Positions 647 to 34,697 of a DNA stretch of 49,809 bases are shown here, one piece after another. How positions within the stretch are numbered: position 1 is the first letter of the stretch; each line of letters starts with the position of its first letter. A program made the position numbers and the translations under genes. Source of the stretch: Candidatus Woesearchaeota archaeon (GTDB lineage: Archaea; Nanobdellota; Nanobdellia; Woesearchaeales; JAGWAF01); assembly GCA_018303205.1 (NCBI GenBank), contig JAGVYP010000019.1, positions 1-49,809 on the forward strand. Direction: 5' to 3'. The notes beneath the pieces are model-generated. The model was given only the letters and a program-made list of their open reading frames with translations. It ran no database searches and had not been told where the DNA came from.

Positions 647-753
647 AAAAAGTCATTGCCTTGGAGCAAAACCAGAAAACAACTCGATTCATGCAGAGTT
701 GTTTTCGTAAAACCTCCGATCGAAGGAGGAGCAGATCTCCGCAATGACTTTTT
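647..753 (+). repeat. Family A structured intergenic element, copy A1
   Basis: Outer stem AAAAAGTCATTGC/GCAATGACTTTTT. Conserved CCTTGGAGCAAAACCAG, hairpin GAAAACAACTC-[GATTCATGCA]-GAGTTGTTTTC, hairpin CCTCC/GGAGG, then GAGCAGATCTCC. Confidence 0.85.
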
Positions 754-785
754 AGAAAAGGAAAAGGACTTCTAAATAAACTTCT

Positions 786-828
786 CGAAACCTTTAAATA
801 GAGCACGTTCTAAATCAGAAAAGAGGTG
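786..828 (+). promoter_or_regulatory. Archaeal BRE-TATA promoter and RBS
   Basis: CGAAACC-TTTAAATA at 786-800. GAGGTG at 823-828 before the ATG at 833. Confidence 0.65.
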
Positions 829-832
829 TTGC

Positions 833-1495
833 ATGGGTGTATTTGACTTTCTGAAAAAGAAAGATCATCAGGAAGCAATGATGATGGGAGAAATGCCTGC
901 CCAAGCACATGACGAGCTTATGAGCCATGCAGAAAAACCAATCGGAACTCCTACACAAGATGTGTTAAATTTTCGCAAACAAGGTTACACTGATAATCAG
1001 ATAGTACAAACCTTACAACGCCAAGGCTACGAGCCTGCACAGATTTATGACGCTTTAAACCAAGCTGAGCTTATGGGAGGAGTACGCCAAATGCCAACGC
1101 AGGAAGCACCACAAATGACACAACAACAGCAAATGATTCCCGGAGGACCCTTACCCTTACAACAACCTTCAGAAGATTTTGAAGAAATGGCAGAATCCAT
1201 CATTGACCAAAAATGGAAAAGCTTCTCAGGAGAACTCCAGAAAATAACACAATGGAAGGATGACCTTAACACACGCTTAAGCAAAGTAGAACAAAGCTTG
1301 CAAGACGTTAAAGGAGATTTGGATAATATTCATGCCGCGCTGGTAGGAAAACTTAATGACTATGATAAGAATTTACTCAATATAGGAACAGAAATAAAAG
1401 CAATGGAAAAAGTCTTTCAAAAAGTCATTCCTACTTTTACAGAAAACGTACAAGAACTCGCTGAAGTAACTAAAAACTTAAAGAAAACTCGTTAG
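833..1495 (+). CDS. Hypothetical protein: small N-terminal helical domain, Q/P-rich linker, C-terminal coiled coil
   Basis: 220-aa ORF with its own promoter and RBS. GYTDNQIVQTLQRQGYEPAQIYDAL helical motif, then a long heptad region. Confidence 0.75.
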   Translation: MGVFDFLKKKDHQEAMMMGEMPAQAHDELMSHAEKPIGTPTQDVLNFRKQGYTDNQIVQTLQRQGYEPAQIYDALNQAELMGGVRQMPTQEAPQMTQQQQMIPGGPLPLQQPSEDFEEMAESIIDQKWKSFSGELQKITQWKDDLNTRLSKVEQSLQDVKGDLDNIHAALVGKLNDYDKNLLNIGTEIKAMEKVFQKVIPTFTENVQELAEVTKNLKKTR

Positions 1496-1501
1496 CATTC
1501 A

Positions 1502-2071
1502 TTATTCTTCTATGGTCAATCTTTGAATCGCAATCATAGCAATAAGTAAAACAACAATCATACCGAGCACTTTGGTATTGAAAAGAGTTTGAAAAAAAGC
1601 ACCTTGTTGCGTTCCTTCTGCCCCCGTACCTACAAGTTGAGTTTCATTTCCAATATAAGGGCCTGTTGCACCAGGACCAGGAACACCACCTCGCTCTGAA
1701 AAAACACTCGTAATACTACCAATAAGAATCAGGAGTAAAATGATAAAAGTCCACCAGCCAATATGCTTATGATAAGGACCTGAGCTCAACAATGTTTCCG
1801 GTTTGACACCAAAAATACCAAAGGCCATCAACATAAAGATAATGATAATAAAGAAAACAACAAGAATAGGGGTCATACGACCAATAATATCAATAACCAC
1901 TTGAGAAAATAAAGTCATAATAGCAAGAAGAAAAGCAATCATACCTGCTAAAGCTCTTCTTTCTTTCAAAATACTCATGGAAAGAATTGCATAAACAAGC
2001 ACAAGGACTAATAAGAAAGGAAAAAGAATACTAAAGTTTTGCAAAAATCCTATATCAAGGATGGATGCCAT
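1502..2071 (-). CDS. Multi-pass membrane protein (paralogue 3 of 3)
   Basis: About 5 hydrophobic helices. Shares the N-terminal PFLLV..L.YAIL motif with 2080..2676 and 3114..3692. Confidence 0.75.
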   Translation of the reverse strand: MASILDIGFLQNFSILFPFLLVLVLVYAILSMSILKERRALAGMIAFLLAIMTLFSQVVIDIIGRMTPILVVFFIIIIFMLMAFGIFGVKPETLLSSGPYHKHIGWWTFIILLLILIGSITSVFSERGGVPGPGATGPYIGNETQLVGTGAEGTQQGAFFQTLFNTKVLGMIVVLLIAMIAIQRLTIEE

Positions 2072-2079
2072 TGCTCACC

Positions 2080-2676
2080 TTAATGACCGCCGTGGCCGCC
2101 CTTACCTAAACCTTCAAAAAAGCTTTTGATACCATCACCAAAGTGACCTTCCCCAGGCTCTTTGGTAACAAACCAGACGATAAGAGTAAAGATGAGGATA
2201 ATAACAATAACAGCTTGCACTTCTGAATTATCCAGGAAAGACCAGAAAGCTCCACCGTATTGAGCATAACCAGCAGCACGCAAGAAAATCCAGATAATAG
2301 CAATAAAAGAAATAAGAACAATAAAACCAGACATGGACTCTGTCCAACCAGATTTTCCAGCAAATAATCCTATTAAGATAAGAAACATAACAATAGCAAC
2401 CAGTAAGATAGCAACATTAGGAATAGCAGCATTAACAATATTTACAGGATCTGAATTTGGAGGATAAACACCCATAATATGAGGAACAACAACAAGAAGA
2501 GAGATCACTAAAGAAATAACAATATTATATTTTTTAGCATCTTCATCCTTATGACCTAAAACTCCTGATTTTTGTAACGCAACAAAAGAAAGTACAAAGA
2601 AGAGAGCAAAAGGAAGCCATAAGTCTTGTAAGCCGATATTTGTAAGAACCTGTCCTATATTACCCGTATATGCCAT
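2080..2676 (-). CDS. Multi-pass membrane protein (paralogue 2 of 3)
   Basis: GLQDLWLPFALFFVLSFVALQKSGVLG, about 5 TM helices, Gly/His-rich tail. Confidence 0.75.
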   Translation of the reverse strand: MAYTGNIGQVLTNIGLQDLWLPFALFFVLSFVALQKSGVLGHKDEDAKKYNIVISLVISLLVVVPHIMGVYPPNSDPVNIVNAAIPNVAILLVAIVMFLILIGLFAGKSGWTESMSGFIVLISFIAIIWIFLRAAGYAQYGGAFWSFLDNSEVQAVIVIILIFTLIVWFVTKEPGEGHFGDGIKSFFEGLGKGGHGGH

Positions 2677-2755
2677 GTTCTACCCCTTTTTGAATAAACT
2701 CTTTTACCTCTTACCCTATATAAACCTTTTGATTGAAAAAACATACTTACCCACA

Positions 2756-3043
2756 GGAAGGTCATTGCCTTAGAGCAAAATCAGATTTTCGAGCGATTCA
2801 TGCCAGATTTTTAATAAAATCTGGTAAAAACTTGTGGGTTTCGCTTTGCTCAAGCCCACTAACAGAAACAGTGCACGATCATAAATTTATGAGTAGCATC
2901 GTGCATGCGACTTTATGTCGCATCTGTTTCTACCAGATCCCATGGAAATGCAACATTTCTAGGGGCTCAAGAAACAAAAGGTTTCTTTGAGCTTTGTTAA
3001 AGATCTGTGAGGGACGAGCAGTAGATCTCCGCAATGACCTTCC
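2756..3043 (+). repeat. Family A element, expanded copy A2 containing about 180 nt of inserted hairpin modules
   Basis: 13-bp outer stem GGAAGGTCATTGC/GCAATGACCTTCC with conserved A motifs at both ends. After GATTCATGC comes a run of hairpins (CCAGATTTT/AAAATCTGG, GTGGG/CCCAC, ATGCGAC/GTCGCAT, GCTCAAGAAAC/GTTTCTTTGAGC). Confidence 0.85.
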
Positions 3044-3113
3044 AAAGAAGAATAGAGGATAAAACAGAGAGACAGATAAAATTGATAAAAAAAAATAAGA
3101 AGACTAAAAAGCA

Positions 3114-3692
3114 TTAATGATGTTCAGATTTATGCATACTGCCACCACCGCCACTTTTACCGCTTGAGGTTACCCAGTAAATAAATGCTATGACAAGAAC
3201 AATAAAGACAATAGCAGCAACAGCAGAACTTGTCCAATACGCACTCAACCAATCCCAAACTACTTCCAGATACGTCTTGCCATTTTTTGTCGTGATCGCA
3301 TTCAAAAAGATAAAAACAATACCAAAGAACATGATAACCATAAAGATAACATTCCAATAACTATTCAAAGCAAAATCTTCTCCTTGTTTTGCAAAACTTC
3401 CCGCAAGCATCAAAAACAAGACAGAAAGCAGCAAGAGAACAACAATCTGACTAGAAACGGTAAAAATGATTTCTACAATTTTAGAGGAAGCAATAACAAA
3501 AAAGCCAAGAACAAAAGCCATCATCGCATTCAAGTTCTTCTTGGTTTCCCCATTTTCTGTTCCCAATACTTTTGTTTTTTCTAAGATAGCAAAGACCAGA
3601 GTAAAAACAAGAAGAAAAGGCAGGATAACATCATAGACTCCTAGCCTATCAAAAAATTGTACAATATCTACAAGAGCACTATTTTCTGGCAT
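3114..3692 (-). CDS. Multi-pass membrane protein (paralogue 1 of 3)
   Basis: GVYDVILPFLLVFTLVFAILEKTKVLG, about 5 TM helices, Gly/His-rich tail. Confidence 0.75.
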   Translation of the reverse strand: MPENSALVDIVQFFDRLGVYDVILPFLLVFTLVFAILEKTKVLGTENGETKKNLNAMMAFVLGFFVIASSKIVEIIFTVSSQIVVLLLLSVLFLMLAGSFAKQGEDFALNSYWNVIFMVIMFFGIVFIFLNAITTKNGKTYLEVVWDWLSAYWTSSAVAAIVFIVLVIAFIYWVTSSGKSGGGGSMHKSEHH

Positions 3693-3846
3693 ACCCCTTC
3701 TTTGATATCTGGTCTATTTAAACTTTTCGAACAGAAAATGACGTATGATAAATCCCTAAATTTTTCTTTTTTTCCTATAAAAAAAACATCAAAAATGATT
3801 AAAAGTCACCGCCATCTTTATATACACCTCTTTGTTCTGTAATGTC

Positions 3847-4413
3847 ATGATCCTTGACCAAAAAGAATTCAAAGAAATTGCCAAACACCTTGAAGACTTT
3901 GAAAAGAAAAGAGAAGAACAAATTGCAAAGTCAAGAGAAGTCATTAAACTTTCCAAGCAGATTATTTACAGTCTGCATAGAAATGATCTCAAAGAAGCGG
4001 AAAAATATGTTCTTGCAATTAAAAAAGAAATGAAATTGCTTTCTCCAAAAGATTATGATACTGGAATGGTAAGTGTTGCTTTCCAGGAGTATGGCGAAGC
4101 ATTATGCTTTTTTCATTTTGTAAAAGAGAAAAAGATCCCTACTGCTAAAGCATTGAATTTAGATCCTGAATCATATCTCATGGGATTATGTGATCTTACA
4201 GGAGAACTCATGCGCAGAGGTGTGAATGCCGTCATTAAAAAAGATTACGATGAGGCAATACTTTGCAAAGACACGGTTGATGAAATCTATGGCGCTTTTC
4301 TTGCTTTTGATTTTCGCAATGGCGAGCTCAGAAAAAAATTCGACAGCATCAAATGGAACCTGAAAAAATTAGAAGACGTAGCATACGATATTAAGACCAA
4401 GTTAGAGAAATGA
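3847..4413 (+). CDS. Translin/TRAX (C3PO) family RNase-like protein
   Basis: QEYGEA and YLMGLCDLTGELMR motifs carry the acidic catalytic residues. C-terminal LRKKFD. ATG at 3847 follows a TTTATATA box. Confidence 0.85.
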   Translation: MILDQKEFKEIAKHLEDFEKKREEQIAKSREVIKLSKQIIYSLHRNDLKEAEKYVLAIKKEMKLLSPKDYDTGMVSVAFQEYGEALCFFHFVKEKKIPTAKALNLDPESYLMGLCDLTGELMRRGVNAVIKKDYDEAILCKDTVDEIYGAFLAFDFRNGELRKKFDSIKWNLKKLEDVAYDIKTKLEK

Positions 4414-4451
4414 TGCAAAAAGAACACCGTGATCAGATCATGCAAATGCAT

Positions 4452-4555
4452 TACGATCATTGCCTTGGAGCACAACCAGAAAAACAAGTGATTCATGCAG
4501 CTTGTTTTTCGCAATGCCTGCGAGGGACGAGCAGTAGATCTCCGCAATGATCGTA
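4452..4555 (+). repeat. Family A element, copy A3
   Basis: 12-bp outer stem TACGATCATTGC/GCAATGATCGTA. CCTTGGAGCACAACCAG, GAAAAACAAGT-[GATTCATGCA]-GCTTGTTTTTC, GAGCAGTAGATCTCC. Confidence 0.85.
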
Positions 4556-4640
4556 GAAAAAAAGAATAAAAATAAATAAGATAAAGAAAGATAAAAATAC
4601 AAAAATAAAAATTGATAAAAAAAACATAAAAAACCAGAAA

Positions 4641-5204
4641 ATGATAAACATCATCAAATTTCTTTTTGAACTGGGAAATGCAAAGCGAGTAAAAAGATCA
4701 GGATGGTGGCTGGCAGGCATTAAAGATCCTGAGTCTATTGCAGAACATATGTGGAGAGCAACCATTCTTGGAAACCTAATCGCAGAAGAGGAAGGTGCGA
4801 ATACCTCTAAGGTCATGAAGATGTTATTGTTTCATGATATTCCTGAAATACGCTTAAATGACACCCATAAAGTAGGCGCGCGCTATATGAACACCAAAGA
4901 AGCAGAGCACAAAGCTTTGGAAGAACAAATACAAGACCTTTTCTCAACACTCAAAAACGAGATCATGCAATTATGGAAAGAAATGCACGAACTTAAAACC
5001 AAAGAAGCTATCGTCGCAAAAGACGCTGACCTTTTGGAATGCGCATTCCAGGCAAAAGAATACCAAGATCAAGGATATACATGTTGCCAAGACTGGATCA
5101 ACAACGTAAGAAAAAAACTCCAAACCAAAACAGCAAAACAATTGCTTTCTCTTCTGGAAAAAAATTCTTCTACTTCCTGGTGGAATGGACTAAAAAAAAT
5201 ATAG
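4641..5204 (+). CDS. HD-domain 5'-deoxynucleotidase-like hydrolase (HDDC2/YfbR-like)
   Basis: KRVKRSGW, ESIAEHMWR, LFHDIPE and KDADLLE motifs. Confidence 0.85.
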   Translation: MINIIKFLFELGNAKRVKRSGWWLAGIKDPESIAEHMWRATILGNLIAEEEGANTSKVMKMLLFHDIPEIRLNDTHKVGARYMNTKEAEHKALEEQIQDLFSTLKNEIMQLWKEMHELKTKEAIVAKDADLLECAFQAKEYQDQGYTCCQDWINNVRKKLQTKTAKQLLSLLEKNSSTSWWNGLKKI

Positions 5205-5449
5205 ATTTAAAGTAAATTTGTTATTCTTTTCTATTATTTTCATTCCTTTTTCTTTTATGTCTTCTCCAATTATCCTTTTTAAAAAAAAAATTCAAAAACA
5301 ATATGAAAAAAACACAAACAAGAATACAAGATAAACCGTGTAATAGAAAAGAAGAGAATTATCAAAAACATGAAAAAAATATTCTTTAGCAAAGAGCACA
5401 GCGTCTGAAGTGAAGATTTTTATAGGGGTGCAGATTCCTCATTTCTAAG

Positions 5450-6124
5450 ATGTCTAATCCTATTTTTACTGTTCTTTATAGAAAAATAAGAGCGCACTAT
5501 GCTGCTCATCCTGAAGCTGTCCGTTTTATAGGTATTACCGGAGAGTATGCTGCAGGAAAAACCTGGTTTAGTGAAGCGTTTGCTCGATATCTTAGAGAAC
5601 AGAAAATTGATGCACATCCTCTTGAGACAGATATGTACTTTCTTTTTTCAAAGGCAGAACGTTTTGCTCTTGAGGCACGACTACGAGAGGAAGGGCAATT
5701 GGAAGAGAGAAGGCATGAAGGCTATACCTTAGATACTGATCGTTGGCTCACGCATCTTCGCCAATTAAGAGAGCGTACACCTGTATCAGATAGGGGGTTA
5801 TATCAAAGAAAGACAGGAGAAAAAGACCTGGTTCTTGAAGTTTCTTTTAATGGTCAAGAAAAATGGGTTTTATTTGACGGAGTCTGGGTTTCAGGACAAC
5901 CGATAAGGCAATACATGGATGTGATGGTGCAACTCTTAGCAGAGGAAGGAGTGAGAAGGGAAAGAGCACGTCTTAGGGCAGCGAGTCTGAACATACCGTA
6001 TGAGCAAACACCTGAACGCTTTAGGGGCATTGATGAACTCACACGAAGATGCTTATGCAGAGACCCTGAAGATATCGTTATTAATAATTCAAACTTTGAC
6101 AATCCTGTTTTGGTAAAAAAATGA
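5450..6124 (+). CDS. P-loop kinase, uridine kinase/phosphoribulokinase-like
   Basis: IGITGEYAAGKT Walker A, ETDMYF, Y.RKTG, VLFDGVW, terminal DIVINNS. Confidence 0.65.
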   Translation: MSNPIFTVLYRKIRAHYAAHPEAVRFIGITGEYAAGKTWFSEAFARYLREQKIDAHPLETDMYFLFSKAERFALEARLREEGQLEERRHEGYTLDTDRWLTHLRQLRERTPVSDRGLYQRKTGEKDLVLEVSFNGQEKWVLFDGVWVSGQPIRQYMDVMVQLLAEEGVRRERARLRAASLNIPYEQTPERFRGIDELTRRCLCRDPEDIVINNSNFDNPVLVKK

Positions 6125-6771
6125 TTAAAGCAATGATCTTTGATATGGACGGAGTGTTGTCTGATACTGAAAAATCACGGTTTCTTATTTTAAAAAAAAT
6201 TCTCAAAAAAGAAGGCATATCTCTAGATGAAAGCTATTCTAAAAAATTTATTGGTTTGAAATTAGAAAGAATCTTTTCAAAATATTTTAAGGATAAACAT
6301 CTCGATGTCTCACGAATAAGAAAAGAAAAAGACAGAATCATACAATCTCATCCGGAAAAATACATCTTGGGATATCCGGGAACAAAAGAATGTTTGCAGA
6401 GATTATCTGATGATGGACTCCAGTTAGCAGTATGTTCATCTTCAAAAAAAGAAAGTATTCACTTTGCGTTAACCTCCCTTGGTATCCTTGGTTTCTTTTC
6501 ATTGATCATAAGCTCGGATGAGGTCAAAGAACAAAAACCATCACCAGAAATCTATTTGCTCGCATTACGCAAGCTTTGCTTAACACCTTCTGAATGCCTT
6601 GTTATTGAAGATAGCAAGATAGGAATAGAAGCTGCGCATCGTGCTGGAATAAAGTGTATAGGCATTACCAGCAATTTTCAAAAAGATGAGCTCAAAGAAG
6701 CTGATAGAGTGGTATCCTCTTTAGACGAAATAAATACCTCACTCATTCGATTGTTTGAAAATACTAACTAA
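6121..6771 (+). CDS. HAD-family phosphatase (beta-PGM/CbbY-like)
   Basis: FDMDGVLSDT motif I, CSSS motif II, KPSPEIY, IEDS..GIEAA. ATGA overlap with the upstream kinase. Confidence 0.9.
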   Translation: MIKAMIFDMDGVLSDTEKSRFLILKKILKKEGISLDESYSKKFIGLKLERIFSKYFKDKHLDVSRIRKEKDRIIQSHPEKYILGYPGTKECLQRLSDDGLQLAVCSSSKKESIHFALTSLGILGFFSLIISSDEVKEQKPSPEIYLLALRKLCLTPSECLVIEDSKIGIEAAHRAGIKCIGITSNFQKDELKEADRVVSSLDEINTSLIRLFENTN

Positions 6772-7219
6772 GATTCATCCCAAGGATTTCAAAATCTTCT
6801 TGTAATTCCTCTTCATCCTGAGGACAATGAAATCCATTATAAGCAAAGGTAATTTTTCCCTGGATCATATTCTTTTTTTGTCCTTGACCAAACTTCGCAC
6901 GCAAGCTATCTTCATGAGTATCCTGATATCCTATGAAATGACCCAGATCTCTTCTAAGAATAGAGAGGGTATCTCCTTGACGATGCTGAAGAACAAAAAC
7001 AATAAAGGTAGTTCCCCACTTGTTCTTTTGATATCCTGAAAGATAGACCTCTCTTTCCTCATTTGAAAATTCCCCATATTTTTTCTTAACAAAAGACACC
7101 CAGGAAGAAAACTTTTTTTTCCGCAGAATCGTATAACCTTTTTTCTCTAAGTACTGCTGTATCTCTTTTTCTTTTTTTACTACCTCAGGCTTCAAAAGCA
7201 ACAAGGAAATATCATCCAT
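6764..7219 (-). CDS. Nucleoside-diphosphate-kinase-like protein (divergent)
   Basis: LLLLKPE at the N-terminus, DSLRAKFG, and NGFHCPQD..E containing the NDK phospho-His position. Confidence 0.6.
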   Translation of the reverse strand: MDDISLLLLKPEVVKKEKEIQQYLEKKGYTILRKKKFSSWVSFVKKKYGEFSNEEREVYLSGYQKNKWGTTFIVFVLQHRQGDTLSILRRDLGHFIGYQDTHEDSLRAKFGQGQKKNMIQGKITFAYNGFHCPQDEEELQEDFEILGMNLS

Positions 7220-7287
7220 GCTCCTATAAAACACTGCTCCTATAAAAAGCCATAACCTTTATATATCGTGTGGTATCCTCCTCACAT

Positions 7288-9027
7288 ATGCTGAGAACCC
7301 ATACCTGCGGTGAATTAAGAAAGCACTATGCAGAGAAAGAAGTACAGCTTTGTGGTTGGGTACATGCTATCCGCACGCACGGTAATGTTACCTTTATTGA
7401 CTTACGAGACCGCTATGGTATTACCCAATTAGCGTTCGCAGAACATTTGAAAAAAGACATTGCAGAAGTCAAAAAAGAATACGTTCTTCAAGTTCAAGGA
7501 ATGGTAAAGAAAAAACCAGAACCTAACAAAAAACTTCTTACAGGAGACATTGAAGTTGAAGTTTCTTCTTATACCGTACTCAATGAAGCAGAACCCTTAC
7601 CCTTGGACATCGACGGATCAACAGAAATGACAGAAGAAACAAGATTAAAATGGAGATTCCTCGATTTGAGAAGTCAACGCATGCAACAAAACTTGACATT
7701 ACGAAATAACGTGCTCAGAACAGTAAGGGAATTTTATCAAAGAAATAATTTTATAGAAATTGAAACTCCTGTACTTGCAAAATCAACACCCGAAGGAGCA
7801 AGGGACTATCTTGTTCCTAGCAGAGTCAATCCTGGAAAATTCTATGCGCTACCCCAATCACCTCAAATTTTCAAACAACTCTTTATGGTTGCAGGTCTTG
7901 ACAGATATTTTCAAATTGTCAAATGTTTTCGAGATGAAGATTTGAGAGGAGAACGACAACCGGAATTTACACAAATAGATGTGGAAATGAGCTTTGTTGA
8001 ACAAGAAGATATCATTCAACTCCACGAACAACTCATAAAACAAGTATGGAAAGATGCTCTGAAGATTGATACTCCTCTGCCTTTTCCTCGCATGACCTAT
8101 ACAGAAGCCATGGAACAATACGGAAAAGATGCTCCAGACACGAGATTCGCATTGAAACTCAAAAAACTCAATGAGATTTTCAAAAAAACAAATTTTGAAA
8201 TTTTCAAAAAAGCATTAGAAGAAAAAGGATCTATTTACGCAATCAATGTCAAGGGAGCTGCTTCTTTTTCAAGAAAAGAGATTGAAGACTGCACAGAAAT
8301 AGTAAAGGCACATCGTGCAAAAGGCCTTGCATGGCTCAAAATGCAAGAAACCTTTGATGGACCTATTGCTAAATTTTTATCTGAAGAAGAAAAAAAACAG
8401 TTGAAAAAAGAATTAGAAATAGAGAAAGAAGATCTGATTTTCTTTGTTGCAGATCAGAAGCATTTTATATGCCAAACTGCTTTAGGAGCTCTTCGCTTAC
8501 ACTTGGGAAAAAAATTAAACCTGATAGACAAAATCGCATGGAATTTTCTCTGGGTCCTTGACTTTCCCCTCTTTGAATACGATGAAGAAGAGAAAAGACA
8601 CGTTGCAGTACACCATCCTTTTACCAGTCCCAAAAAAGGAGATATTCTTAAAATGGAAACACATCCCTTACAGGTCAGAGCATTAGCTCATGATCTTGTC
8701 TTGAATGGCCATGAAATAGGGGGAGGAAGCATTCGTATTCATCAGCGTACATTACAAGAAAAAATGTTTAAGATTCTTGGTTTTTCAAAAGAAGAAGCTG
8801 AAGAAAAATTTGGGTTTCTCTTAAACGCGTTCAAATATGGAGCTCCTCCTCATGGAGGATTGGCTTTTGGTGTAGATCGCATTATTGCATTACTTTGCGG
8901 AGCAGAAAGCATTCGCGAAGTTATTGCATTTCCTAAAACAAAGGATGCTGAAGACTTAATGATGGGATCTCCCTCCTTTGTTTCACAAAAACAGCTTGAT
9001 GAATTAGGCATTAGCTTAAAAAAGTAA
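7288..9027 (+). CDS. aspS: Aspartate--tRNA ligase, bacterial type with GAD insertion domain
   Basis: MLRTHTCGEL, FIDLRDRYG, STPEGARDYLVPSR, LPQSPQIFKQ, FRDEDLR..RQPEFTQ, GAPPHGGLAFGVDR. About 580 aa. Confidence 0.97.
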   Translation: MLRTHTCGELRKHYAEKEVQLCGWVHAIRTHGNVTFIDLRDRYGITQLAFAEHLKKDIAEVKKEYVLQVQGMVKKKPEPNKKLLTGDIEVEVSSYTVLNEAEPLPLDIDGSTEMTEETRLKWRFLDLRSQRMQQNLTLRNNVLRTVREFYQRNNFIEIETPVLAKSTPEGARDYLVPSRVNPGKFYALPQSPQIFKQLFMVAGLDRYFQIVKCFRDEDLRGERQPEFTQIDVEMSFVEQEDIIQLHEQLIKQVWKDALKIDTPLPFPRMTYTEAMEQYGKDAPDTRFALKLKKLNEIFKKTNFEIFKKALEEKGSIYAINVKGAASFSRKEIEDCTEIVKAHRAKGLAWLKMQETFDGPIAKFLSEEEKKQLKKELEIEKEDLIFFVADQKHFICQTALGALRLHLGKKLNLIDKIAWNFLWVLDFPLFEYDEEEKRHVAVHHPFTSPKKGDILKMETHPLQVRALAHDLVLNGHEIGGGSIRIHQRTLQEKMFKILGFSKEEAEEKFGFLLNAFKYGAPPHGGLAFGVDRIIALLCGAESIREVIAFPKTKDAEDLMMGSPSFVSQKQLDELGISLKK

Positions 9028-9045
9028 TAAGGAAGAATAAAAGAG

Positions 9046-9172
9046 GAAGCTGTACCATCCTCAGGTCGAGCTTCTTAGACAAAAAGAAGAGACAGTGACA
9101 AAGGGGACGCTCCAGTCGGGAAACGTCACTCATCAACAAAAAAGATAACAAGCGAGAAGATGGTACAGCTTC
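9046..9172 (+). repeat. Family B structured intergenic element, copy B1
   Basis: 14-bp perfect outer stem GAAGCTGTACCATC/GATGGTACAGCTTC. CTCAGGTCGA-GCTT ... AAGC-GAGAA, inner stem GTGAC/GTCAC enclosing AAAGGGGACGCTCCAGTCGGGA. Confidence 0.85.
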
Positions 9173-9210
9173 AAAAAGTAAAAAAGAAATAAAGATCTTT
9201 GGTGTAAAAC

Positions 9211-9474
9211 ATGCACTCTCATAAAACCCTACGTTTTTTTCAATCCTTTCAAGGTGTAGAAGAAGGAAGAAAAGGACAATGCACTCCAGAACAATGTGAA
9301 ACTCTCGATGGGAGAAAAGGAAGTGCGTGTTGCAAACTCGGTTATGTATGCCCTTGCTTAAAAAAGAATACGCAATGCGGTGTATATCAAATAAGGCCTC
9401 CTAATTGCAGAGTTTTTCCACGAACAAGAGAAGACTTAAGCTTAGTAAAAAATTGCGGATACTATTGGAAATAA
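9211..9474 (+). CDS. YkgJ-family Cys-cluster (Zn/Fe-S) protein
   Basis: C...C...CC...CP.L....C.VY..RP.NCR.FP...CGY pattern. Confidence 0.75.
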   Translation: MHSHKTLRFFQSFQGVEEGRKGQCTPEQCETLDGRKGSACCKLGYVCPCLKKNTQCGVYQIRPPNCRVFPRTREDLSLVKNCGYYWK

Positions 9475-9475
9475 A

Positions 9476-10576
9476 CTATTTTTGATCTTGCATAAACTCT
9501 TTTTTAAATTTTTCAAATCTTTTTTCTTTAATTGCACTTTTTGCTTGTTCCAAAAGAGCATTCATAAAGTGTAAGTTATGTAGAGTGTTTAAGCGATTGC
9601 TGTGGGGTTCTTTCATTCTGAAAAGATGATGCAGATATGCCCTCGTAAAATGTTTGCAAGTATAACAGGTGCAGTCTTCTTCCAAGGGAGCAAAATCATG
9701 TTCATATCTTTTATTTTTAATATCAAGCGTTCCTTTCATCGTGAATAAAGAACCGTGACGCGCGTTCATGGTTGGAAATCGGGAATCCCAGATGTCTATT
9801 CCTTTGATGATACTCTCCAAAATCTGTTCTGGAACACCAATACCCATCAAATACTTAGGCTTTTCTTTGGGCAATTCTTTCATAGCAATATCAATAGCAT
9901 GGTACATATCCTCTGGTTTTTCTCCTAAAGCAAGTCCTCCTAATGCAAGCCCATCAAAATCAATCTGAGAGATTTTTTGTGCAGCAAGCTTGCGGAGATC
10001 GTCATGTAATCCGCCTTGACTAATACCAAATAAAAGATGGCCATCATTTTTTTTGTCGTGAAATGTTTTGCAACGCTCTGCCCATGCTGTTGTTTTTTTA
10101 ATGCTTTCTAAACATCTCGAATGTCCAGCTCCTAAGCGTGGCATATCATCTAAACACATATGCACATCTGCATTAATCATTAATTGAATTTCCATGCTCC
10201 TTTCAGGTGTGCAAAACACTTCTCCGCCATGGATAGGGTCTTTAAATTTTACGCCGTCTTGATTCGTCATGAGAAGAAAACTATCACTATACATCTGAAA
10301 TCCCCCAGAATCTGTAAAAATATTTTTTTTAAATTTCATAAATTGATGAATTCCCCTACACTTTTCAAAGACCTGCAATCCTGGTGAGAGAGATAACACA
10401 AAGCTATTCGCGATGATGCTTTGCGTTCCTAACATTTCTAAGTCTTTTCCATCAAAGTATTTCCCTACAGCCTTAGTAGCACACGGCATGAAAAAAGGAG
10501 TTTCAAAACTGCCATGCTGTGTTGTTAAGAGACCTACTCTTGCTTTGCCATCTTCTGCAATGATTTCAAAAGTCAT
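9476..10576 (-). CDS. tgt: tRNA-guanine(34) transglycosylase, bacterial type
   Basis: ETPFFMP, TDSGGFQ, GISQGG, GGLALGE, KPKYLMGIG and the Zn site CTCYTC...HNL. 366 aa with no archaeosine-TGT PUA extension. Confidence 0.93.
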   Translation of the reverse strand: MTFEIIAEDGKARVGLLTTQHGSFETPFFMPCATKAVGKYFDGKDLEMLGTQSIIANSFVLSLSPGLQVFEKCRGIHQFMKFKKNIFTDSGGFQMYSDSFLLMTNQDGVKFKDPIHGGEVFCTPERSMEIQLMINADVHMCLDDMPRLGAGHSRCLESIKKTTAWAERCKTFHDKKNDGHLLFGISQGGLHDDLRKLAAQKISQIDFDGLALGGLALGEKPEDMYHAIDIAMKELPKEKPKYLMGIGVPEQILESIIKGIDIWDSRFPTMNARHGSLFTMKGTLDIKNKRYEHDFAPLEEDCTCYTCKHFTRAYLHHLFRMKEPHSNRLNTLHNLHFMNALLEQAKSAIKEKRFEKFKKEFMQDQK

Positions 10577-10701
10577 ATACTGGAGGAAAGAGCAGTATTT
10601 AAAAAACTATCAGTATATTGATCTTCTTTATGATGAAATTAGTTTTTTCTTATTTTTCATTTTTTTAAGTACTTTTTCTTTCTTCTAGACTTTTTTCATA
10701 T

Positions 10702-10849
10702 ATGTCAAAAACCACCGATCATAGATTGGTGGCATGTCGCGACATGCCATTATCCATAGTGGTTTTTGAGCATGCTCAAAAATTTTCCTCTGGTAATTGT
10801 CCATTGGCTTCGAGCCACTCTTCAGAGACTAGTGGAAAATTTTTGACAT
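10702..10849. repeat. Family C modular palindromic element, copy C1
   Basis: Terminal inverted repeat ATGTCAAAAA/TTTTTGACAT. Two modules joined at GAGCATGCTC. Internal palindromes GGCATGTCGCGACATGCC, CCACCGATC/GATTGGTGG and TGGCT/AGCCA. The first ~70 nt are nearly identical to the copy starting at 30358. Confidence 0.85.
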
Positions 10850-11028
10850 TTTTGAAACTTTTAACTTTCTCACACTTCTTTTGTATTTTTGTTTGTATTT
10901 TTATAAAAATAATAAACAGAAAAGAAAGGATATGCCAAAGATTAAAAAATAACAAAAGAAAGAGAACAAATGATAAAAAACAGCCCTGGAATCCAAATAT
11001 TTTTAAACAAGCTCTTCTCCCTGTTTCT

Positions 11029-12327
11029 ATGAAAAAATACCTTACTCTTCAGGAAGCCATAGAACAAGGCTCAGGAAAGGTAGCTTTGCAAGGCTGGGTG
11101 TATCGCGAACGAGGCTCATCTAAGATAAAATTTCTTGTACTCAGAGATCATACTACTATTCTTCAATGTGTTGTTGAAAAAGAAAAAATAGGAGAAAAAA
11201 AGTTTAGTCTGATTGACAAAATACAAATTGAAACCTCTGTACGCTTAGAAGGAACGATCAAAAAAGATGAACGAGCTCCCACAGGATATGAAGTCAATGT
11301 GGAAGACCTTGAAATTGTAGGAATAGCAAATGAGTTTCCTATCCAAAAAGATCAGAGCGTTGAATTTTTAGCAGACAACAGGCATTTATGGCTCAGATCG
11401 AGAAGGATGACAGCAATTCTCAAAATACGGAGCACGGTTTTTCAAGCCATAGATACGTATTTTAGAAATAATAAGTTTTATTTGTACCACAGCCCTATCT
11501 TTTCTCCGAATAATTGCGAAGGAGGAAGCACAGTATTCAAAGTAGACTATTTTGGTAACGAAATGTTTCTCACACAGTCCTGGCAATTATATGCAGAAGC
11601 AGGTATTTTTTCTTTAGGAAATATCTACACCATTGCACCTTCCTTTAGAGCTGAAAGAAGCAAAACATCACGACATTTGACAGAATACTGGCATGCAGAA
11701 ATGGAAATGGTCTGGAACACTTTTGAAGATGTCATGCACCATGCAGAAGGAGTTCTCAAATTTATCCTGAAAGAAGTTTTAGACAAACACCAAGAAGAAT
11801 TCAAAATACTTGAAAGAGACCCCAAAAAGTTAGAGCCTGCACTGAAAAAACCCTTCATAAAAATGACCTATACTGATGCTTTAAAGATTTTAAAAGAAAA
11901 ATGTAAAATGGACGTTGAATGGGGAAAAGATTTGCGTACCCTAGAAGAAGAGAAACTGACCAAGTTATATGATGTGCCCTTACTGGTAACACGATATCCT
12001 AAAAAAATTAAAGCATTTTACATGAAAGAAGACCCTGAAAATTCTGAAGTAGTACTCGGAATGGATTGCCTTGCACCAGAAGGCTATGGAGAAATTATCG
12101 GAGGCTCACAAAGAGAAGAAAACGCAGAAGAAATTGAAAAAAGACTGCGAGAACAAGGAGAAGATCCCTCAGTTTATGGTTGGTATTTGGATTTGAGAAA
12201 ATACGGCTCAGTTCCCCACGGAGGATTTGGATTAGGTGTTGAAAGAGTTATTACCTGGATTTGCGGACTAGACAACATCAAAGATGCAATTCCCTTTCCC
12301 AGAACCATGTTCAGATTTACTCCATGA
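11029..12327 (+). CDS. asnS: Asparagine--tRNA ligase (archaeal type)
   Basis: GWVYRER, RHLWLRS, FLTQSWQLYAE, FRAERSKTSRHLTEYWHAEME, EIIGGSQRE, YGSVPHGGFGLGVER. The real start is ATG 11029; the upstream ORF extension runs through repeat C1. Confidence 0.93.
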   Translation: MKKYLTLQEAIEQGSGKVALQGWVYRERGSSKIKFLVLRDHTTILQCVVEKEKIGEKKFSLIDKIQIETSVRLEGTIKKDERAPTGYEVNVEDLEIVGIANEFPIQKDQSVEFLADNRHLWLRSRRMTAILKIRSTVFQAIDTYFRNNKFYLYHSPIFSPNNCEGGSTVFKVDYFGNEMFLTQSWQLYAEAGIFSLGNIYTIAPSFRAERSKTSRHLTEYWHAEMEMVWNTFEDVMHHAEGVLKFILKEVLDKHQEEFKILERDPKKLEPALKKPFIKMTYTDALKILKEKCKMDVEWGKDLRTLEEEKLTKLYDVPLLVTRYPKKIKAFYMKEDPENSEVVLGMDCLAPEGYGEIIGGSQREENAEEIEKRLREQGEDPSVYGWYLDLRKYGSVPHGGFGLGVERVITWICGLDNIKDAIPFPRTMFRFTP

Positions 12328-12668
12328 GTATAGAACAATACATCAAAAACAATACGTTCTGAAGCATTACCGTTCGCAGGCCGAAGAAGTCCATTGTGAT
12401 CATTGCCTTGGAAAAGGTCACCGTCCTCAGGTCGAGCGTGTAAGCCAAAAGAATCAACGAAGTTCAAGGGGATACTCCCCACGGGAATGAACGATAGAGA
12501 AACAAAAAGGTAACTACGCGAGAAGACGGTGACCAAAAAAGAAAATAAATGAGCAGCAAATCTCTGTGATGACCTTCCAAAAAGAAGAGAAAAAAAGATA
12601 AAATAAACATAAAAAAATGAATAGTGTAAATCAAAAATGAGTATAGAACAATACATCAAAAACAATAC
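12324..12668 (+). mobile_element. Insertion scar: 32-bp direct repeat enclosing nested B and A elements
   Basis: ATGAGTATAGAACAATACATCAAAAACAATAC occurs at 12324-12355 and 12637-12668. Between them lie a degenerate B left arm (12360-12384), an A left arm (12398-12412), a full B copy and an A right arm (12551-12578). Confidence 0.7.
12416..12534 (+). repeat. Family B element, copy B2 (nested inside family A arms)
   Basis: Stem GGTCACCGTC/GACGGTGACC. CTCAGGTCGA-GCGT...ACGC-GAGAA, inner GTTCA/TGAAC enclosing AGGGGATACTCCCCACGGGA. Confidence 0.85.
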
Positions 12669-12879
12669 CCTTTCCATTCTTGTGAAACCTAACTCTTCCA
12701 AAACAGAAATTCTTGGCTGGGATGAAGAAAAGCAAGCTTTGAGAATTGCAATTCATGCTCCTCCTGAAGACAATAAAGCAAATAAAGAACTTCTAAAATT
12801 TCTGAAAAAAACATTGAAAAGAAAAGTTGAATTGATTAAAGGTAAAACTTCAAGAGAGAAAGTAGTTAGGATTTCTTAA
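12637..12879 (+). CDS. DUF167/UPF0235 (YggU-like) protein
   Basis: VKPNSSKTEI, APPEDNKANKEL, LIKGKTSREK. Confidence 0.88.
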   Translation: MSIEQYIKNNTLSILVKPNSSKTEILGWDEEKQALRIAIHAPPEDNKANKELLKFLKKTLKRKVELIKGKTSREKVVRIS

Positions 12880-13630
12880 ACGGTTTAGACTGTTTCCAGA
12901 ATGCATCAAAATAAGACTTAAACGAATCTGCTATTTCTTTATCAATGATTTCAATAACCATTTCTTTGCTTTGTAAGAAAATAGCAGTCACATCTTTATA
13001 ATTAAGAAACCATGATGGCGTTTCAATACCTGGTGGCATGTAACGTGCTTCAGAACCTTTGTAACTATTTCTATTTAACAAAGTAGAACGTGGAGTGCCA
13101 TGATTAAAAAGCATTTTGCATGTAATACCTGCTTTTGCTCTTCGAAGGTGATCTCTTTTCCAATAAAGGTCATATCTTTCTTCTTGATTTGTAGGGATTC
13201 CCCAGGAATAAAATTCTTCGCCTTTCTTTAATTTGAGATACGTGTGTTCTGCAACGGTTATTATTCCTTTGAATCCTTCATAGATTTGTGCTTCACTTGA
13301 TTTTTTTGCAGATTGTTTTTGCAATTGCAATTGAGGAATCAGTTCATTCATAGCTTTTCTTTGTTGTTCAAGTGTTTTTTCTTTTTGGTCTATATAGTCT
13401 TGAAATTTAATAGGATCTTCTGCTTGATAGTATTTTGTTTTCTGTTTGACGATGTAAGAAACAAGTCCTTTAGTGATGAGTCGTTCAACCACTTCATAGA
13501 TTTTTGATCTTGCTACTCCTGACTTTTCTGTTAAAGGTCCAGAAGTGGTTGAACCTAAATAAAGAAGGGCAAGATAAACTTTAGTTTCACTTTCAGTTAA
13601 TCCGATGTCTCGTAGTACGGAGTAATTCAT
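12866..13630 (-). CDS. TrmB-family transcriptional regulator
   Basis: IGLTESETKVYLALL...RSKIYEVVERLITKGLVS HTH, followed by YEGFKG and an effector domain ending in YFDAFW. Confidence 0.88.
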   Translation of the reverse strand: MNYSVLRDIGLTESETKVYLALLYLGSTTSGPLTEKSGVARSKIYEVVERLITKGLVSYIVKQKTKYYQAEDPIKFQDYIDQKEKTLEQQRKAMNELIPQLQLQKQSAKKSSEAQIYEGFKGIITVAEHTYLKLKKGEEFYSWGIPTNQEERYDLYWKRDHLRRAKAGITCKMLFNHGTPRSTLLNRNSYKGSEARYMPPGIETPSWFLNYKDVTAIFLQSKEMVIEIIDKEIADSFKSYFDAFWKQSKPFKKS

Positions 13631-13724
13631 AGCATTACAAGAAGGAGCTTCTATATAAAACTAAGTATTGCTTAACCCTATAGGGGGAGGCGATCTTTAT
13701 TTATTTCCTATACTATACTCTGTT

Positions 13725-14789: not shown

Positions 14790-14915
14790 AAACATCGGAT
14801 TTTTCGAATATTTTTCGGTAAAAAACTCAAAAGACGGAAAAAAGAACGACAAAAGCGAAATCTTTTCGGAAAAATAACCGCAAAGTATTTCTTAACTAAA
14901 AAACAAGATTATGAA

Positions 14916-15176
14916 ATGTCTTTCATAACATTAATTGTAATTGAAAAAGAAGATATAAAAATTATTCCTGAGCATTATAATACGATTATTAGGATTATGA
15001 ATCATGATTTTAAGAATGCGAAGCATTACCTAAAAGAAGCTGAAGAAATTCCGCTAGATGCAGGCTACCTTCTTGTTGATATGAATAAAAAAATTATCAT
15101 AAATGGGCAGTCAGCTTTTGCACGTCAGCATCTCCATCCCAAATACAGCACTGAATGGTTCTGGATCGAGGTGTAG
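14916..15176 (+). CDS. Hypothetical protein
   Basis: 86-aa ORF with typical composition, directly upstream of the toxin-antitoxin pair. Confidence 0.55.
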   Translation: MSFITLIVIEKEDIKIIPEHYNTIIRIMNHDFKNAKHYLKEAEEIPLDAGYLLVDMNKKIIINGQSAFARQHLHPKYSTEWFWIEV

Positions 15177-15184
15177 TATACAAT

Positions 15185-15397: not shown

Positions 15398-15398
15398 C

Positions 15399-15611: not shown

Positions 15612-15632
15612 ACTGTTGATTAAGATTTTACA

Positions 15633-15862: not shown

Positions 15863-15874
15863 AGATGGTATAAA

Positions 15875-16237: not shown

Positions 16238-16294
16238 GATTATAGGTACATGATGAAAAAGAGATTTCTTAGTAGCTCTAAATTAAAAAAAGAG

Positions 16295-16798: not shown

Positions 16799-16829
16799 GT
16801 TAGTAGATAAAATAGGATTAATATTTAAA

Positions 16830-19704: not shown

Positions 19705-19725
19705 GATTTTGATTTATTATAATGA

Positions 19726-32662: not shown

Positions 32663-33800
32663 GCATAACCTCTCCTACAAGGTACAAAGAACCAAAGCAC
32701 ACTATTAAACCTTTTGGTGTAAGCCTTTGCGCGCTTTCTAAAGCTTCCTGAAGGTCAGGAATCACTATTCCTTGGCCAAGCTCAGAAGGATCAAGAGCAT
32801 CTTCATGGCTTGACTTAGTAACAATAAGCACATCATGCTCTGGAAATAAAGAGATCATCTTATCATAGTCTTTTTTCTTTCCCACACCAAAAAGAAGCGT
32901 CAGCATAGAATAGTTTTTTCTGAGAGAATTAACATATTCAGCGAGCACTTTGACTCCTGCTTCGTTATGCGCTCCATCAACAAGAAAGTTGTTATCTAAA
33001 AATTGACACCTTCCAGGCCAAAATGCTGTTGCTAAGCCCTCCTTGATGGTTTTTTCTTCAATATCAAGTGCTTTTGCTGCTGTAAAAGCAATTCCTGCGT
33101 TTATTTTTTGAAAACTACCTTGTAAAGCAATTTTTCCTTCATAGGATATTGCGATCTGAAGACTTGCTTTTTGTTCCCTTACCTTTTGTTCAATAAGAGA
33201 AAGTGCAGGCTGATCAGAAGGAATAACAACGACACACTCTTTTTTGATGATACCACACTTATCCTTGGTTATTTCTTCAACAGTATTACCCAAGAACTCT
33301 GTATGGTCCATGCTTATACTTGTTAAAATACAAAGTTTTGGCATGATGACATTGGTAGCATCCCAAGTACCCCCTAAGCCAGCTTCAATAACAGCATAGT
33401 CCACTTTTCGTTCTGCAAAATAAAGAAAAGCTACTGCTGTCATGATCTCAAAAAAGGTAAGCTCAGTATGCACCTCTTTTGCTTTTTTTTGAACAAAGAG
33501 AACAAGACGCAAGAAATCCTCTTTTGAAATTTGTTGATCATTGATAACTATTCTTTCTCTCACATCAACAAGATGAGGAGAAGTATACCTTCCTACAGAG
33601 TATCCTGCTTTTTGAAGAATACTATCAAGCATTGCACAGACAGAACCCTTACCATTAGTACCCGCAACATGAATACAGATTAATGAGAGGTGAGGATTAT
33701 TCAAGACTCCTAAGACATTTTTAATATGGTCAAGAGTAGGATTAATACCATGATGTTTTCTTAGATGAAATAATTCTTCTATAAGGAGGTCATAGTTCAT
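32631..33800 (-). CDS. folC: Folylpolyglutamate/dihydrofolate synthase
   Basis: HVAGTNGKGS, YTSPHL, TFFE, EAGLGG..DATN, DH..FLG, WPGR, DGAHN, FGSLYLVGE. Confidence 0.95.
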   Translation of the reverse strand: MNYDLLIEELFHLRKHHGINPTLDHIKNVLGVLNNPHLSLICIHVAGTNGKGSVCAMLDSILQKAGYSVGRYTSPHLVDVRERIVINDQQISKEDFLRLVLFVQKKAKEVHTELTFFEIMTAVAFLYFAERKVDYAVIEAGLGGTWDATNVIMPKLCILTSISMDHTEFLGNTVEEITKDKCGIIKKECVVVIPSDQPALSLIEQKVREQKASLQIAISYEGKIALQGSFQKINAGIAFTAAKALDIEEKTIKEGLATAFWPGRCQFLDNNFLVDGAHNEAGVKVLAEYVNSLRKNYSMLTLLFGVGKKKDYDKMISLFPEHDVLIVTKSSHEDALDPSELGQGIVIPDLQEALESAQRLTPKGLIVCFGSLYLVGEVMHAFEARKKRS

Positions 33801-33815
33801 AGGATGGGGAAGAGC

Positions 33816-33835
33816 TAAAGCTTTATATAGCTTTA
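33816..33835. promoter_or_regulatory. Symmetric bidirectional TATA promoter shared by folC and tmk
   Basis: TAAAGCT-TTATAT-AGCTTTA is centred at 33825.5, exactly midway between the start codons at 33800 (-) and 33851 (+). Confidence 0.7.
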
Positions 33836-33850
33836 TTTGCTGCTCACACT

Positions 33851-34570
33851 ATGGGCTTCTTTGTGATGATTGACGGCCTTGATGGCTCAGGAAAAGGAAC
33901 TGCATTAGATGCGCTAAAACAATGGGCAGCAAAAAAGAAAAAAGTTCTTGATCTCAGAGAATACGGAAAAAAAGATCAAGGTTACCCTAAAAGCATAGCA
34001 GAATATGATGTAATTATTTCCGCAGAGCCTACGTATGTGGGATATGGCAAAAAGATACGAGAAGAACTCATTCAAAAAAATAAAAAACACAGCGCACAGG
34101 AAATAGCAGAAGCCTTTGCAAAAGACAGGGAAGCATTATATACCAAAATTATTATTCCAGCCCTACAACAAGGCAAATGGGTTTTTCAAGAACGAGGAAT
34201 TGTAACCTCCTTAGTATACCAGCCAGCACAAGGAGTTTCATTAGAAAAAGTAAAAGCACTTCCAGGAAACAAACTTACCCTAGAGCATGCACCTGACCTA
34301 CTGATTATTATGAAAGTAAAGCCAGAAACAACCATGCTCAGGCTTGAAAAAAGAAAAAAGAAAGACAATGCCATCTTTGAAAATATTGCATTTCAAAAGA
34401 AAATAGAAAATGTTTATGAAAGCTCATGGCTAAAAAAACTCTTTGAAAAAAAAGGAAGCACTGTTGTCTATCTTTCTACAGACCCTCCTCTAACAGCAAA
34501 AGACACCAAGAAAGAGATTGTTAAAATAGTAAGAACAAAAATTGAAGAAGAAAAAAGAGAAGTATGGTGA
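33851..34570 (+). CDS. tmk: Thymidylate kinase
   Basis: IDGLDGSGKGT, AEPT, FA.DR, ER...TSLVYQ, PDL, RL..R, FE...FQ. Confidence 0.88.
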   Translation: MGFFVMIDGLDGSGKGTALDALKQWAAKKKKVLDLREYGKKDQGYPKSIAEYDVIISAEPTYVGYGKKIREELIQKNKKHSAQEIAEAFAKDREALYTKIIIPALQQGKWVFQERGIVTSLVYQPAQGVSLEKVKALPGNKLTLEHAPDLLIIMKVKPETTMLRLEKRKKKDNAIFENIAFQKKIENVYESSWLKKLFEKKGSTVVYLSTDPPLTAKDTKKEIVKIVRTKIEEEKREVW

Positions 34571-34592
34571 GTATTCCCTTTATTATTATACA

Positions 34593-34697
34593 GAAGGTCA
34601 TCACCTTGGAGCAAAATCAGGAGAAAGCCTGATTCATGCAAGGCTTTCGACGCAAGATCTCTGATCAACGGAAGAGTAAATCTCCGTGATGACCTTC
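34593..34697 (+). repeat. Family A element, copy A5
   Basis: 12-bp outer stem GAAGGTCATCAC/GTGATGACCTTC, which co-varies relative to A1-A3. CCTTGGAGCAAAATCAG, GAAAGCCT-[GATTCATGCA]-AGGCTTTC, GAGTAAATCTCC. Confidence 0.85.

Follow-up and report, generated by a model that had tools for sequence, protein, structure and literature searches.

The 49,809-nt stretch of woesearchaeal DNA analysed here (contig JAGVYP010000019.1, hereafter the window) carries five copies of a dispersed element of about 100 nt, which we call family A. We consider it likely that family A is a non-coding, non-autonomous family of transposable elements of the miniature inverted-repeat type (MITEs) with a folded core, moved in trans by the transposases of resident insertion sequences (IS). 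The conserved part is a core of ~80 nt, comprising a CUU bulge, helix P2 and a three-way junction with helices P3 and P4, and closed by a variable helix P1; in recently active lineages, outer arms with transposase terminal inverted repeats extend P1. At least one lineage seems to use an IS5-family DDE transposase with 9-bp duplications, and another appears to make 3-bp TWA duplications. New in family A are a conserved centre with free ends, a core shared by MITEs whose termini differ, the exchange of cores within a single chassis, and the coexistence of short and long forms. A literature search found no description of the core; the supplementary lists of PMC11602168, which it did not cover, may include it.

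The window is the entire contig C45 of its source genome, G000, an assembly of 1.42 Mb in 74 contigs that is 85% complete. G004, G041-G045, G052, G104 and G233 denote other genomes.

Family A folds into four helices. Its parts follow one another as P1 (12 modelled pairs), the CUU bulge, P2 (GGAG/CUCC), a junction CAAAAYCA, P3 (11 pairs, loop GAUUCAUGCA), a junction GCAAAAU, P4 (CUGC/GCAG, with a loop that starts and finishes in GA) and a junction UAGAU, so ordered that P1, bulge and P2 lead into a three-way junction with P3 and P4. We tested covariation in two alignments against 500 shuffles, and in the first of them also against slid partners, with a procedure that is not tree-aware. The genome alignment contains 23 copies: three from the window and 20 picked for diversity among 47 short copies, which were retrieved by a script looking for the two junction motifs and a complementary stem. 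Paired cells amount to 92.8% in this set, against 66.9% after shuffling and 34-49% with slid partners; both sides are changed in 25 of the 31 pairs, which none of the 500 shuffles reaches. RNAalifold, run independently, returned the same four helices. The metagenome alignment contains 65 distinct copies from metagenome contigs, independent of the genome set; it was fitted to our covariance model R1 (reporting threshold E <= 0.01) and therefore favours the structure. Here 92.6% of cells are paired and 29 of 31 pairs are changed on both sides, again with 0/500 shuffles as good.

An earlier reading of the window, made from the letters alone (the sequence-only reading), had proposed covarying stems, and these results uphold it. 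Its outer and inner stems are real; the fourth helix, P4, had been missed, and the outer stem, given as 8 bp, measures 9-15 bp in 61 of 67 copies (the R1 matches of the source genome that are 95-110 nt long, among 72). Its conserved junctions are borne out by the enrichment of the junction motifs described below, with one correction: GGAG/CUCC is no fixed junction but itself a covarying helix, replaced by GUAG/CUAC in 5 of the 23 genome copies.

Conservation is concentrated where bases do not pair, as that reading had also claimed. Unpaired columns hold 1.38 bits on average and paired ones 0.98; the CUU bulge reaches 1.9 bits, the P3 loop 1.88 and P2 1.7, while the P1 and P3 arms lie at 0.73-0.85. 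Length is tightly kept as well: 63 of 75 motif pairs found by the motif-and-stem script at a span of up to 12 kb measure 96-101 nt. The 12 longer pairs are seven insertion-bearing copies of 124-234 nt and five pairs of 2.4-12 kb that arose by chance or across separate copies. True copies extend to ~290 nt at most, none with gene-sized cargo, and our search for an autonomous copy among pairs of up to 12 kb gave cross-pairs or chance pairs only. One-base length differences in the P4 loop, seen by eye in the alignment, leave no common reading frame. Likewise, a small open reading frame (ORF) starting at the loop ATG was dismissed, as its frame is not kept (judged by eye).

Two further features mark the fold. 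At the base of P3, one subtype carries tandem G·A/A·G pairs: they occupy 84 cells, with purines on the + strand only and no pyrimidine pairs. In a long form, found in G004 and G041, ~55 nt split the P3 loop between GAUUC and UGCA. This insert consists of a closing stem and three hairpins, whose place and layout are alike in both genomes while the sequence differs.

Within the helices, wobble pairs show no excess over A·C mismatches: the 67 copies of the source genome (2077 cells) contain 24 G·U and 23 A·C, and 49 copies from other genomes contain 31 and 30, mostly as singletons. This equality, the fact that both strands fold, and the seven loop-proximal pairs of P3 without one unpaired cell in the 65 metagenome copies would suit an origin of the perfect stems as a mutational by-product, whereby template switching at quasi-palindromes copies the arms and the element has no function beyond that of a transposon. 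We give this explanation little credence. It does not account for near-invariant loops, bulge and junctions in genomes where element G+C spans 33-68% (40-68% at metagenome loci, 33-66% at genome loci) and the stems are saturated with changes, nor for the fixed length; the conserved tandem G·A mismatches are equally unexplained, as copying of the arms would erase them.

All five window copies lie on the + strand at the places first reported. Copy A1 (648..752, short form) scores 116.1 bits with R1 and folds with a z-score of -6.0. Its helices, placed by alignment and motif positions, are P1 at 648-659/741-752, P2 at 663-666/737-740, P3 at 675-685/696-706 and P4 at 714-717/728-731, with the CUU bulge at 660-662 and the P3 loop at 686-695. 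The short copies A3 (4452..4555; P1 of 12 bp, UACGAUCAUUGC; 104.4 bits; z -5.6) and A5 (34593..34697; P1 GAAGGUCAUCAC; 114.9 bits; z -4.8) are similar, A5 being of the P3 subtype whose base has tandem G·A/A·G. Reverse complements of A1, A3 and A5 also fold well (z -5.5, -3.2 and -3.7). Copy A2 (2756..3043; arms 2756-2768/3031-3043; z -8.9) had rightly been listed as a copy and proves to be composite: both core ends are intact, and ~197 nt of another repeat, family C, stand behind GAUUCAUGC at ~2804-3000 in place of the 3' arm of P3. Copy A4 (12396..12580), described before as arms only, indeed retains P1, CCUUGGA and GAGCAGCAAAUCUCUG; its interior is swapped for a different structured core, family B, with arms at 12416-12428/12522-12534. 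Its fold is unremarkable (z -1.25; 16 of 200 shuffles fold as well). Neither A2 nor A4 is reported by R1 at its threshold.

The two junction motifs single out these copies. With up to three mismatches, the 5' motif matches the window five times against 0.38 expected (0/100 shuffles reach five), four times at copies and once as a stray at 29217; the 3' motif matches five times against 0.16 expected, always at a copy. The loop decamer alone is not significant in the window (nine matches, 5.4 expected; 7/100 shuffles reach nine). Contigs assembled from four DNA runs over window positions 1-20000 break at or beside the copies, and two joints, 666 to 3002 and 2835 to 4518, connect separate copies, the usual behaviour of repeats in an assembly; no empty site could be discerned in these contigs.

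Evidence of transposition comes from G043, a related genome in which nine copies at scattered places show no difference over 165 of 165 bp, with the 105-nt core in the centre. Their ends, GGGTATGTCCCGA and TCGGGACACACCC, form an imperfect 13-bp terminal inverted repeat, and an exact 9-bp direct repeat stands at a fixed boundary in eight of the nine; the ninth fits with a 1-nt shift. At six fetched contig ends of the same genome we found an IS-like end whose outer 16-20 nt equal those of the MITE and which then runs into different sequence ~55 nt before the contig stops, as expected of a multicopy IS that breaks the assembly. The source genome has a related IS with the end GGCTCTGTCCTAA...: three unassembled copies can be deduced from shared 99-nt contig ends (C18/C23, C64/C59 and C29/C19), with reverse-complementary 9-mers on both sides. 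These partner IS end in GG(C/G)T..TGTCC and make 9-bp duplications; the duplication length and the GG(C) ends presumably fit the IS903 group of the IS5 family as defined by ISfinder. A homologous IS is assembled in G233 (L151, 66-955): its 890 bp encode a 278-aa protein that matches DDE_Tnp_1 (6.5e-14) and, as best NCBIfam model, IS5_2 (1.9e-33), the latter with 116 bits, below the 140-bit cut-off, so membership of that subgroup is not established.

In the source genome, outer arms beyond P1 define four subfamilies. Subfamily I ends in the inverted repeat GGTAAAGTCAAG, and flanking 9-mers match at eight or more of nine positions in 5/8 copies. Subfamily II ends in GAACCTATC and has TAA/TAA or TTA/TTA flanks (TWA) in all five copies. 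Subfamily III, with ends GG..TTATGAAACCC, shows exact 9-mers in two of four copies, and in subfamily IV (TAGTAGAAGACA) a duplication is indistinguishable from the repeat. Across the 67 copies, exact flanking 9-mers occur in 11, against 3.8 with flanks re-paired (maximum 10 in 100 trials). The one at A1 may be a matter of chance, since this copy has no outer repeat.

Insertion sites are not shared between genera. None of six G004 insertions has a copy at the syntenic place in the source genome, and three of these places are clearly empty, with the genes adjacent; family A insertions are shown to turn over faster than genera diverge. Taken together, inverted repeats, duplications, the identity of scattered copies, the presence of a partner IS and sites that genera do not share support one candidate of the sequence-only reading, a REP/RPE-like non-autonomous mobile element. 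The partner found is of the DDE type (IS5-like); HUH, GIY-YIG or reverse transcriptase partners did not turn up, though no search was aimed at them.

The element is also modular. The G043 chassis, with the same ends and the same P1 (GGGTGGCACTGC), is found with a different core of ~125 nt in at least six MITEs of ~200-210 bp, the exchange being exact at the inner end of P1. This alternative multi-hairpin core was seen at L129, L131 and L136, and at L130 on the other strand. Family B, the core found in A4, has three kinds of surroundings: A-type arms enclose it, or arms of its own do (GGTCACCGTCCTC/GAAGACGGTGACC), or it lies within MITEs of 165-275 bp with the ends of the resident IS (GGCTCTGTCCTAA) and 9-bp duplications. 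In 7 of 12 matches, the window copy included, an exact or degraded remnant of an A-type CCUU(GGA) junction precedes the B core. Family C sits nested within A2, and elsewhere in the source genome it lies within or just before other family A copies. Alternative cores in shared arms and chassis mean that cores and chassis have recombined.

Family B is a second structured repeat and family C a third repeat. Family B reads ...AGGTCGAGYGT...ACAAGRGGGNNNNCCC... and has no Rfam match in the window, where it is present at 12416-12534, from ~49261 onward and from 21479 onward; other copies in the source genome are C19:15371-15536, C55:18823-18988 and C71:5806-5971. Family C consists of CAGATYTTTAATAARATCTGG followed by a GTG.GTTTCGC...GCTCAAGC.CAC hairpin, in the window at ~2804-3000 (arms 2819-2831/2926-2938) and elsewhere at C32:3296-3360, C68:13778-13842 and C62:1981-2040.

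How could one core come to be carried by several kinds of termini? A long perfect helix is also a DNA inverted repeat, so the closing helix may become, or gain, transposase ends; such a conversion into IS ends would explain one core with several termini and transposases. Moreover, we infer that single insertions are recent, whereas the core is ancient and has retained its fold; selection would then act on element lineages, with only folded cores persisting or spreading.

Family A departs from the usual picture of MITEs as decaying deletion products of IS, whose ends count and whose interior is free to drift: its pattern is inverted. According to a review (PMC10969869), prokaryotic MITEs are mobilised in trans by related IS, are mostly intergenic and give transcripts predicted to form stable stem-loops; the same review mentions BOX and SPRITE. 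A survey reports a 'Woesearchaea genome' among those with the highest archaeal MITE densities, at 105 per Mb (PMC11602168). Family A resembles prokaryotic MITEs such as QMITE2 of Coxiella and those of Sulfolobus, Halobacterium and Haloquadratum in being short, non-coding and multicopy, with inverted repeats and duplications. It differs from them in its conserved interior and varying termini, one core going with three or more kinds of termini and duplications, and in compensatory change helix by helix, with near-invariant loops, across many genomes. As for IS of the IS5 family, the likeness lies in the partner IS, since family A itself encodes nothing.

Modular or structured repeats are known in bacteria too. 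BOX of Streptococcus pneumoniae and Correia of Neisseria are co-transcribed with their neighbours, their modules occur in varying combinations, and their RNA hairpins can affect message stability or termination. By description they differ from family A in being bacterial and conserved in sequence, stems included, rather than covarying; neither is known to have a three-way-junction core with fixed loops.

Family A copies tend to follow genes on the same strand. Where genes of the source genome run in tandem, copies share their direction in 36 of 45 cases (p 6.6e-5), and for 52 of 75 copies the upstream neighbour has the strand of the element; both counts rely on a crude ORF caller. At metagenome loci the upstream neighbour is co-oriented in 30 of 43 cases, the downstream one in only 24 of 52. 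The median distance behind the upstream stop is 36.5 nt, and four of the five window copies lie 22-68 nt after a + strand stop codon, as first noticed. Runs of five T (T5) are rare around the element: 7 of 48 upstream gaps contain one, and 2 of 48 copies have one within the following 40 nt. Such a run is found before or after the element in 9 of 48 upstream genes, compared with 42% of all genes that have one within 60 nt of the stop. For the role of the core our preferred guess, conceivable if short of probable, is that, when read on the + strand, it lets an insertion behind a gene do the transcript no harm, or even serve it, through shaping its 3' end, stabilising it or insulating it.

The A-rich tract that had been noted after every copy is real (55% A over the 40 nt following 48 copies) but is no part of the element: it belongs to the neighbouring promoter or terminator region. 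It holds ATTGATAAAAAA ~31 nt before the next ATG, and we read it as the promoter of the next gene. Probably ATTGATAAAAAA is the TATA/BRE promoter consensus of the organism, with leaders very short or absent; it recurs at window positions 4600-4640, 34710-34725 and 3085-3100 and in many intergenic regions of the source genome. In G043, seven of the nine identical insertions (loci L120-L127) lie ~10 nt upstream of a motif AAGGCTTAAATAC that precedes, by 24-35 nt, the start codon of a gene read divergently; the element apparently prefers sites immediately upstream of promoters.

In a different explanation the core is a functional structured RNA, either a self-cleaving or processing element or a protein-binding motif of the 3' untranslated region, and the transposon is only its vehicle of spread; the loops would then be conserved as an active site or a binding surface. 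Loops and junctions far more conserved than stems, four helices covarying in two independent sets and strand-specific tandem G·A pairs all fit it, and so does the optional three-hairpin domain at one fixed place of the P3 loop in two genomes, a feature of many structured RNAs. Co-orientation with the upstream gene, the scarcity of T5 runs and a core common to MITEs with different termini point the same way. On the other side stand the missing wobble excess and the reverse complement, which folds nearly as well. In the window Rfam has no match at gathering thresholds, and of four weak matches at E <= 5 none falls on a family A copy. Genera have no insertion in common, so that family A is indispensable to no single locus, and the neighbouring genes are unrelated housekeeping genes; for window positions 1-6000, no RNA run is listed. 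We regard this alternative as possible though doubtful. A more specific version, a new structured-RNA class of DPANN-type archaea (ribozyme or protein dock) that would ride MITEs, spread by different transposases, to the 3' ends of genes and there shape message ends or stability, with the long form as a natural variant, appears unlikely to us on the sequence comparisons made here.

The Rfam result agrees with the failure of the sequence-only reading to match the element to any riboswitch, ribozyme or small RNA. Nor did we see a resemblance to the cores of hammerhead, twister, pistol, hatchet or hairpin ribozymes. Other identities were tried and rejected. An archaeal bulge-helix-bulge site has in its favour the CUU bulge and the 4-bp P2, but such a site has two 3-nt bulges on opposite strands around a 4-bp helix and another helix past the second bulge, and alignment columns 20-22/87-89, where that last helix would lie, neither pair nor covary (by eye). 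Also by eye, the element is not tRNA-like: its loops are constant, and a T or D arm is lacking. A K-turn at P3 or P4 would have a 3-nt bulge beside the G·A pairs, which is missing, and G29-C60 covaries. For a pseudoknot between the P3 loop and the junctions, covariation is impossible because the loop does not vary.

Several points weigh against a transposase-driven MITE. The transposase is seen in the G233 homologue, the interiors of the IS in G043 and the source genome being unassembled. An outer repeat or target duplication is recognisable in only ~15 of the 67 copies of the source genome; most, including A1, A3 and A5, end at P1, their sole terminal repeat, and have no convincing duplication, so their movement is deduced from that minority and from G043. 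Because the G043 chassis spreads with a different core too, the family A core is not required for transposition by the G043 enzyme. Conserved loops and hairpins are not needed by the DDE mechanism, which leaves their conservation unexplained. Parity of G·U with A·C gives no strand signal and lends no support to selection on RNA, one of the two forms (folded RNA or ssDNA) that the sequence-only reading had proposed; neutral decay after insertion fits it too, and the counts do not tell this apart from selection on DNA. The orientation counts of the source genome suffer from the crude ORF calls, and the bias in tandem contexts is weak at metagenome loci (9 of 14). Finally, T5 runs are equally frequent in sense (9/67) and antisense (10/67) within the copies; the core is therefore not a plain oligo-T terminator, an identity that we rejected on these counts.

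The copies without duplications lead to a further explanation, which we hold to be very unlikely: the element would work as folded single-stranded DNA, recognised by an HUH enzyme (IS200/IS605 or REP/RAYT-like) or a tyrosine enzyme (attC-like) that moves P1-ended copies without duplications, the IS5-type arms being secondary captures. Stems that are strictly Watson-Crick and strand-symmetric, without tolerance of wobble, agree with this. So does a closing stem free in sequence next to fixed unpaired bases, as in attC sites, and the orientation bias could follow the direction of replication. With attC and REP/RAYT elements, family A shares that pairing and a few unpaired bases outweigh stem sequence, and that copies lie just behind genes in the same orientation. 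Those systems differ in having conserved ends, arrays or clusters near the enzyme, and no 9-bp duplications, whereas family A is conserved at its centre and dispersed; variable ends around a fixed centre are the reverse of attC and REP. All copies that can be judged young have fixed-length duplications and terminal repeats matching a DDE IS. By the standards of IS200/IS605 or REP/RAYT, the duplications of young copies argue against membership, while most copies of the source genome have none; HUH genes were not searched for. Copies stand singly over more than 40 contigs, without cassette arrays. We rejected an integron attC site, as the ends of family A are its most variable part and each copy stands alone, scattered over the genome (no search was aimed at an integrase gene). 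Among 90 ORFs beside metagenome copies, a single transposase was found, of the DDE type (DUF772 and DDE_Tnp_1, at L187) and without any terminal-repeat relation to the copy; no search was aimed at HUH or recombinase genes.

Whichever way the core acts, strong helix covariation in a multicopy element is not by itself proof of an RNA gene. Should the core act on transcripts, tiny gene-dense symbiont genomes would gain ready-made RNA signals; should it act as folded DNA, it would point to a requirement or helper of MITE spread that has gone unrecognised.

The genome-wide search with a covariance model, as the sequence-only reading had suggested, gave 72 R1 matches in the source genome, singly dispersed. 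The distribution of family A is patchy. Among 40 relatives, only G004, of another genus in the same family, carries family A, with 38 matches (2/41 genomes with the source genome counted). In a sample of the order, family A occurs in 5 of 151 genomes, the source genome included; 26 candidates were scored per genome, and copy numbers from this sample are lower bounds. G104 has at least 26 matches, many of them equal-scoring, and such runs of equal scores suggest bursts.

An exact-pattern scan over one genome per species listed 80 loci, of which the model confirms 55 (56 matches), all in metagenome-assembled genomes (MAGs) titled Woesearchaeota, Nanoarchaeota or 'Methanosarcinales'. The 25 unconfirmed loci have bacterial or other archaeal titles; by our own arithmetic, ~70 chance matches were to be expected. 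Five MAGs of 1.0-1.8 Mb titled 'uncultured Methanosarcinales archaeon', G041-G045 (loci L071, L080, L094, L100 and L109), have 46, 6, 25, 1 and 10 matches. McrA is absent from all five and present in control methanogens, and the hit coordinates of G042 are those of G052, which is placed in the order of the source genome. The taxonomy in these titles looks wrong, and on account of the lack of McrA and this coincidence we claim no transfer between phyla. Metagenome contigs gave at least 125 scan loci; the 80 loci scored with the model yielded 71 confirmed matches. From viral contigs came a single exact pattern match, which was discarded, as the model does not confirm it.

Two minor observations concern the host genome. 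ARAGORN predicts only ~15 tRNA genes in the source genome, covering 10 amino acids, and none in the window; many of its tRNA genes may be interrupted, unusual or unassembled. The genes of the window look archaeal, with bacterial-type additions: translin, TrmB and CARDB are found beside an aspartyl-tRNA synthetase (AspRS) with a GAD domain, TGT and a Mur ligase.

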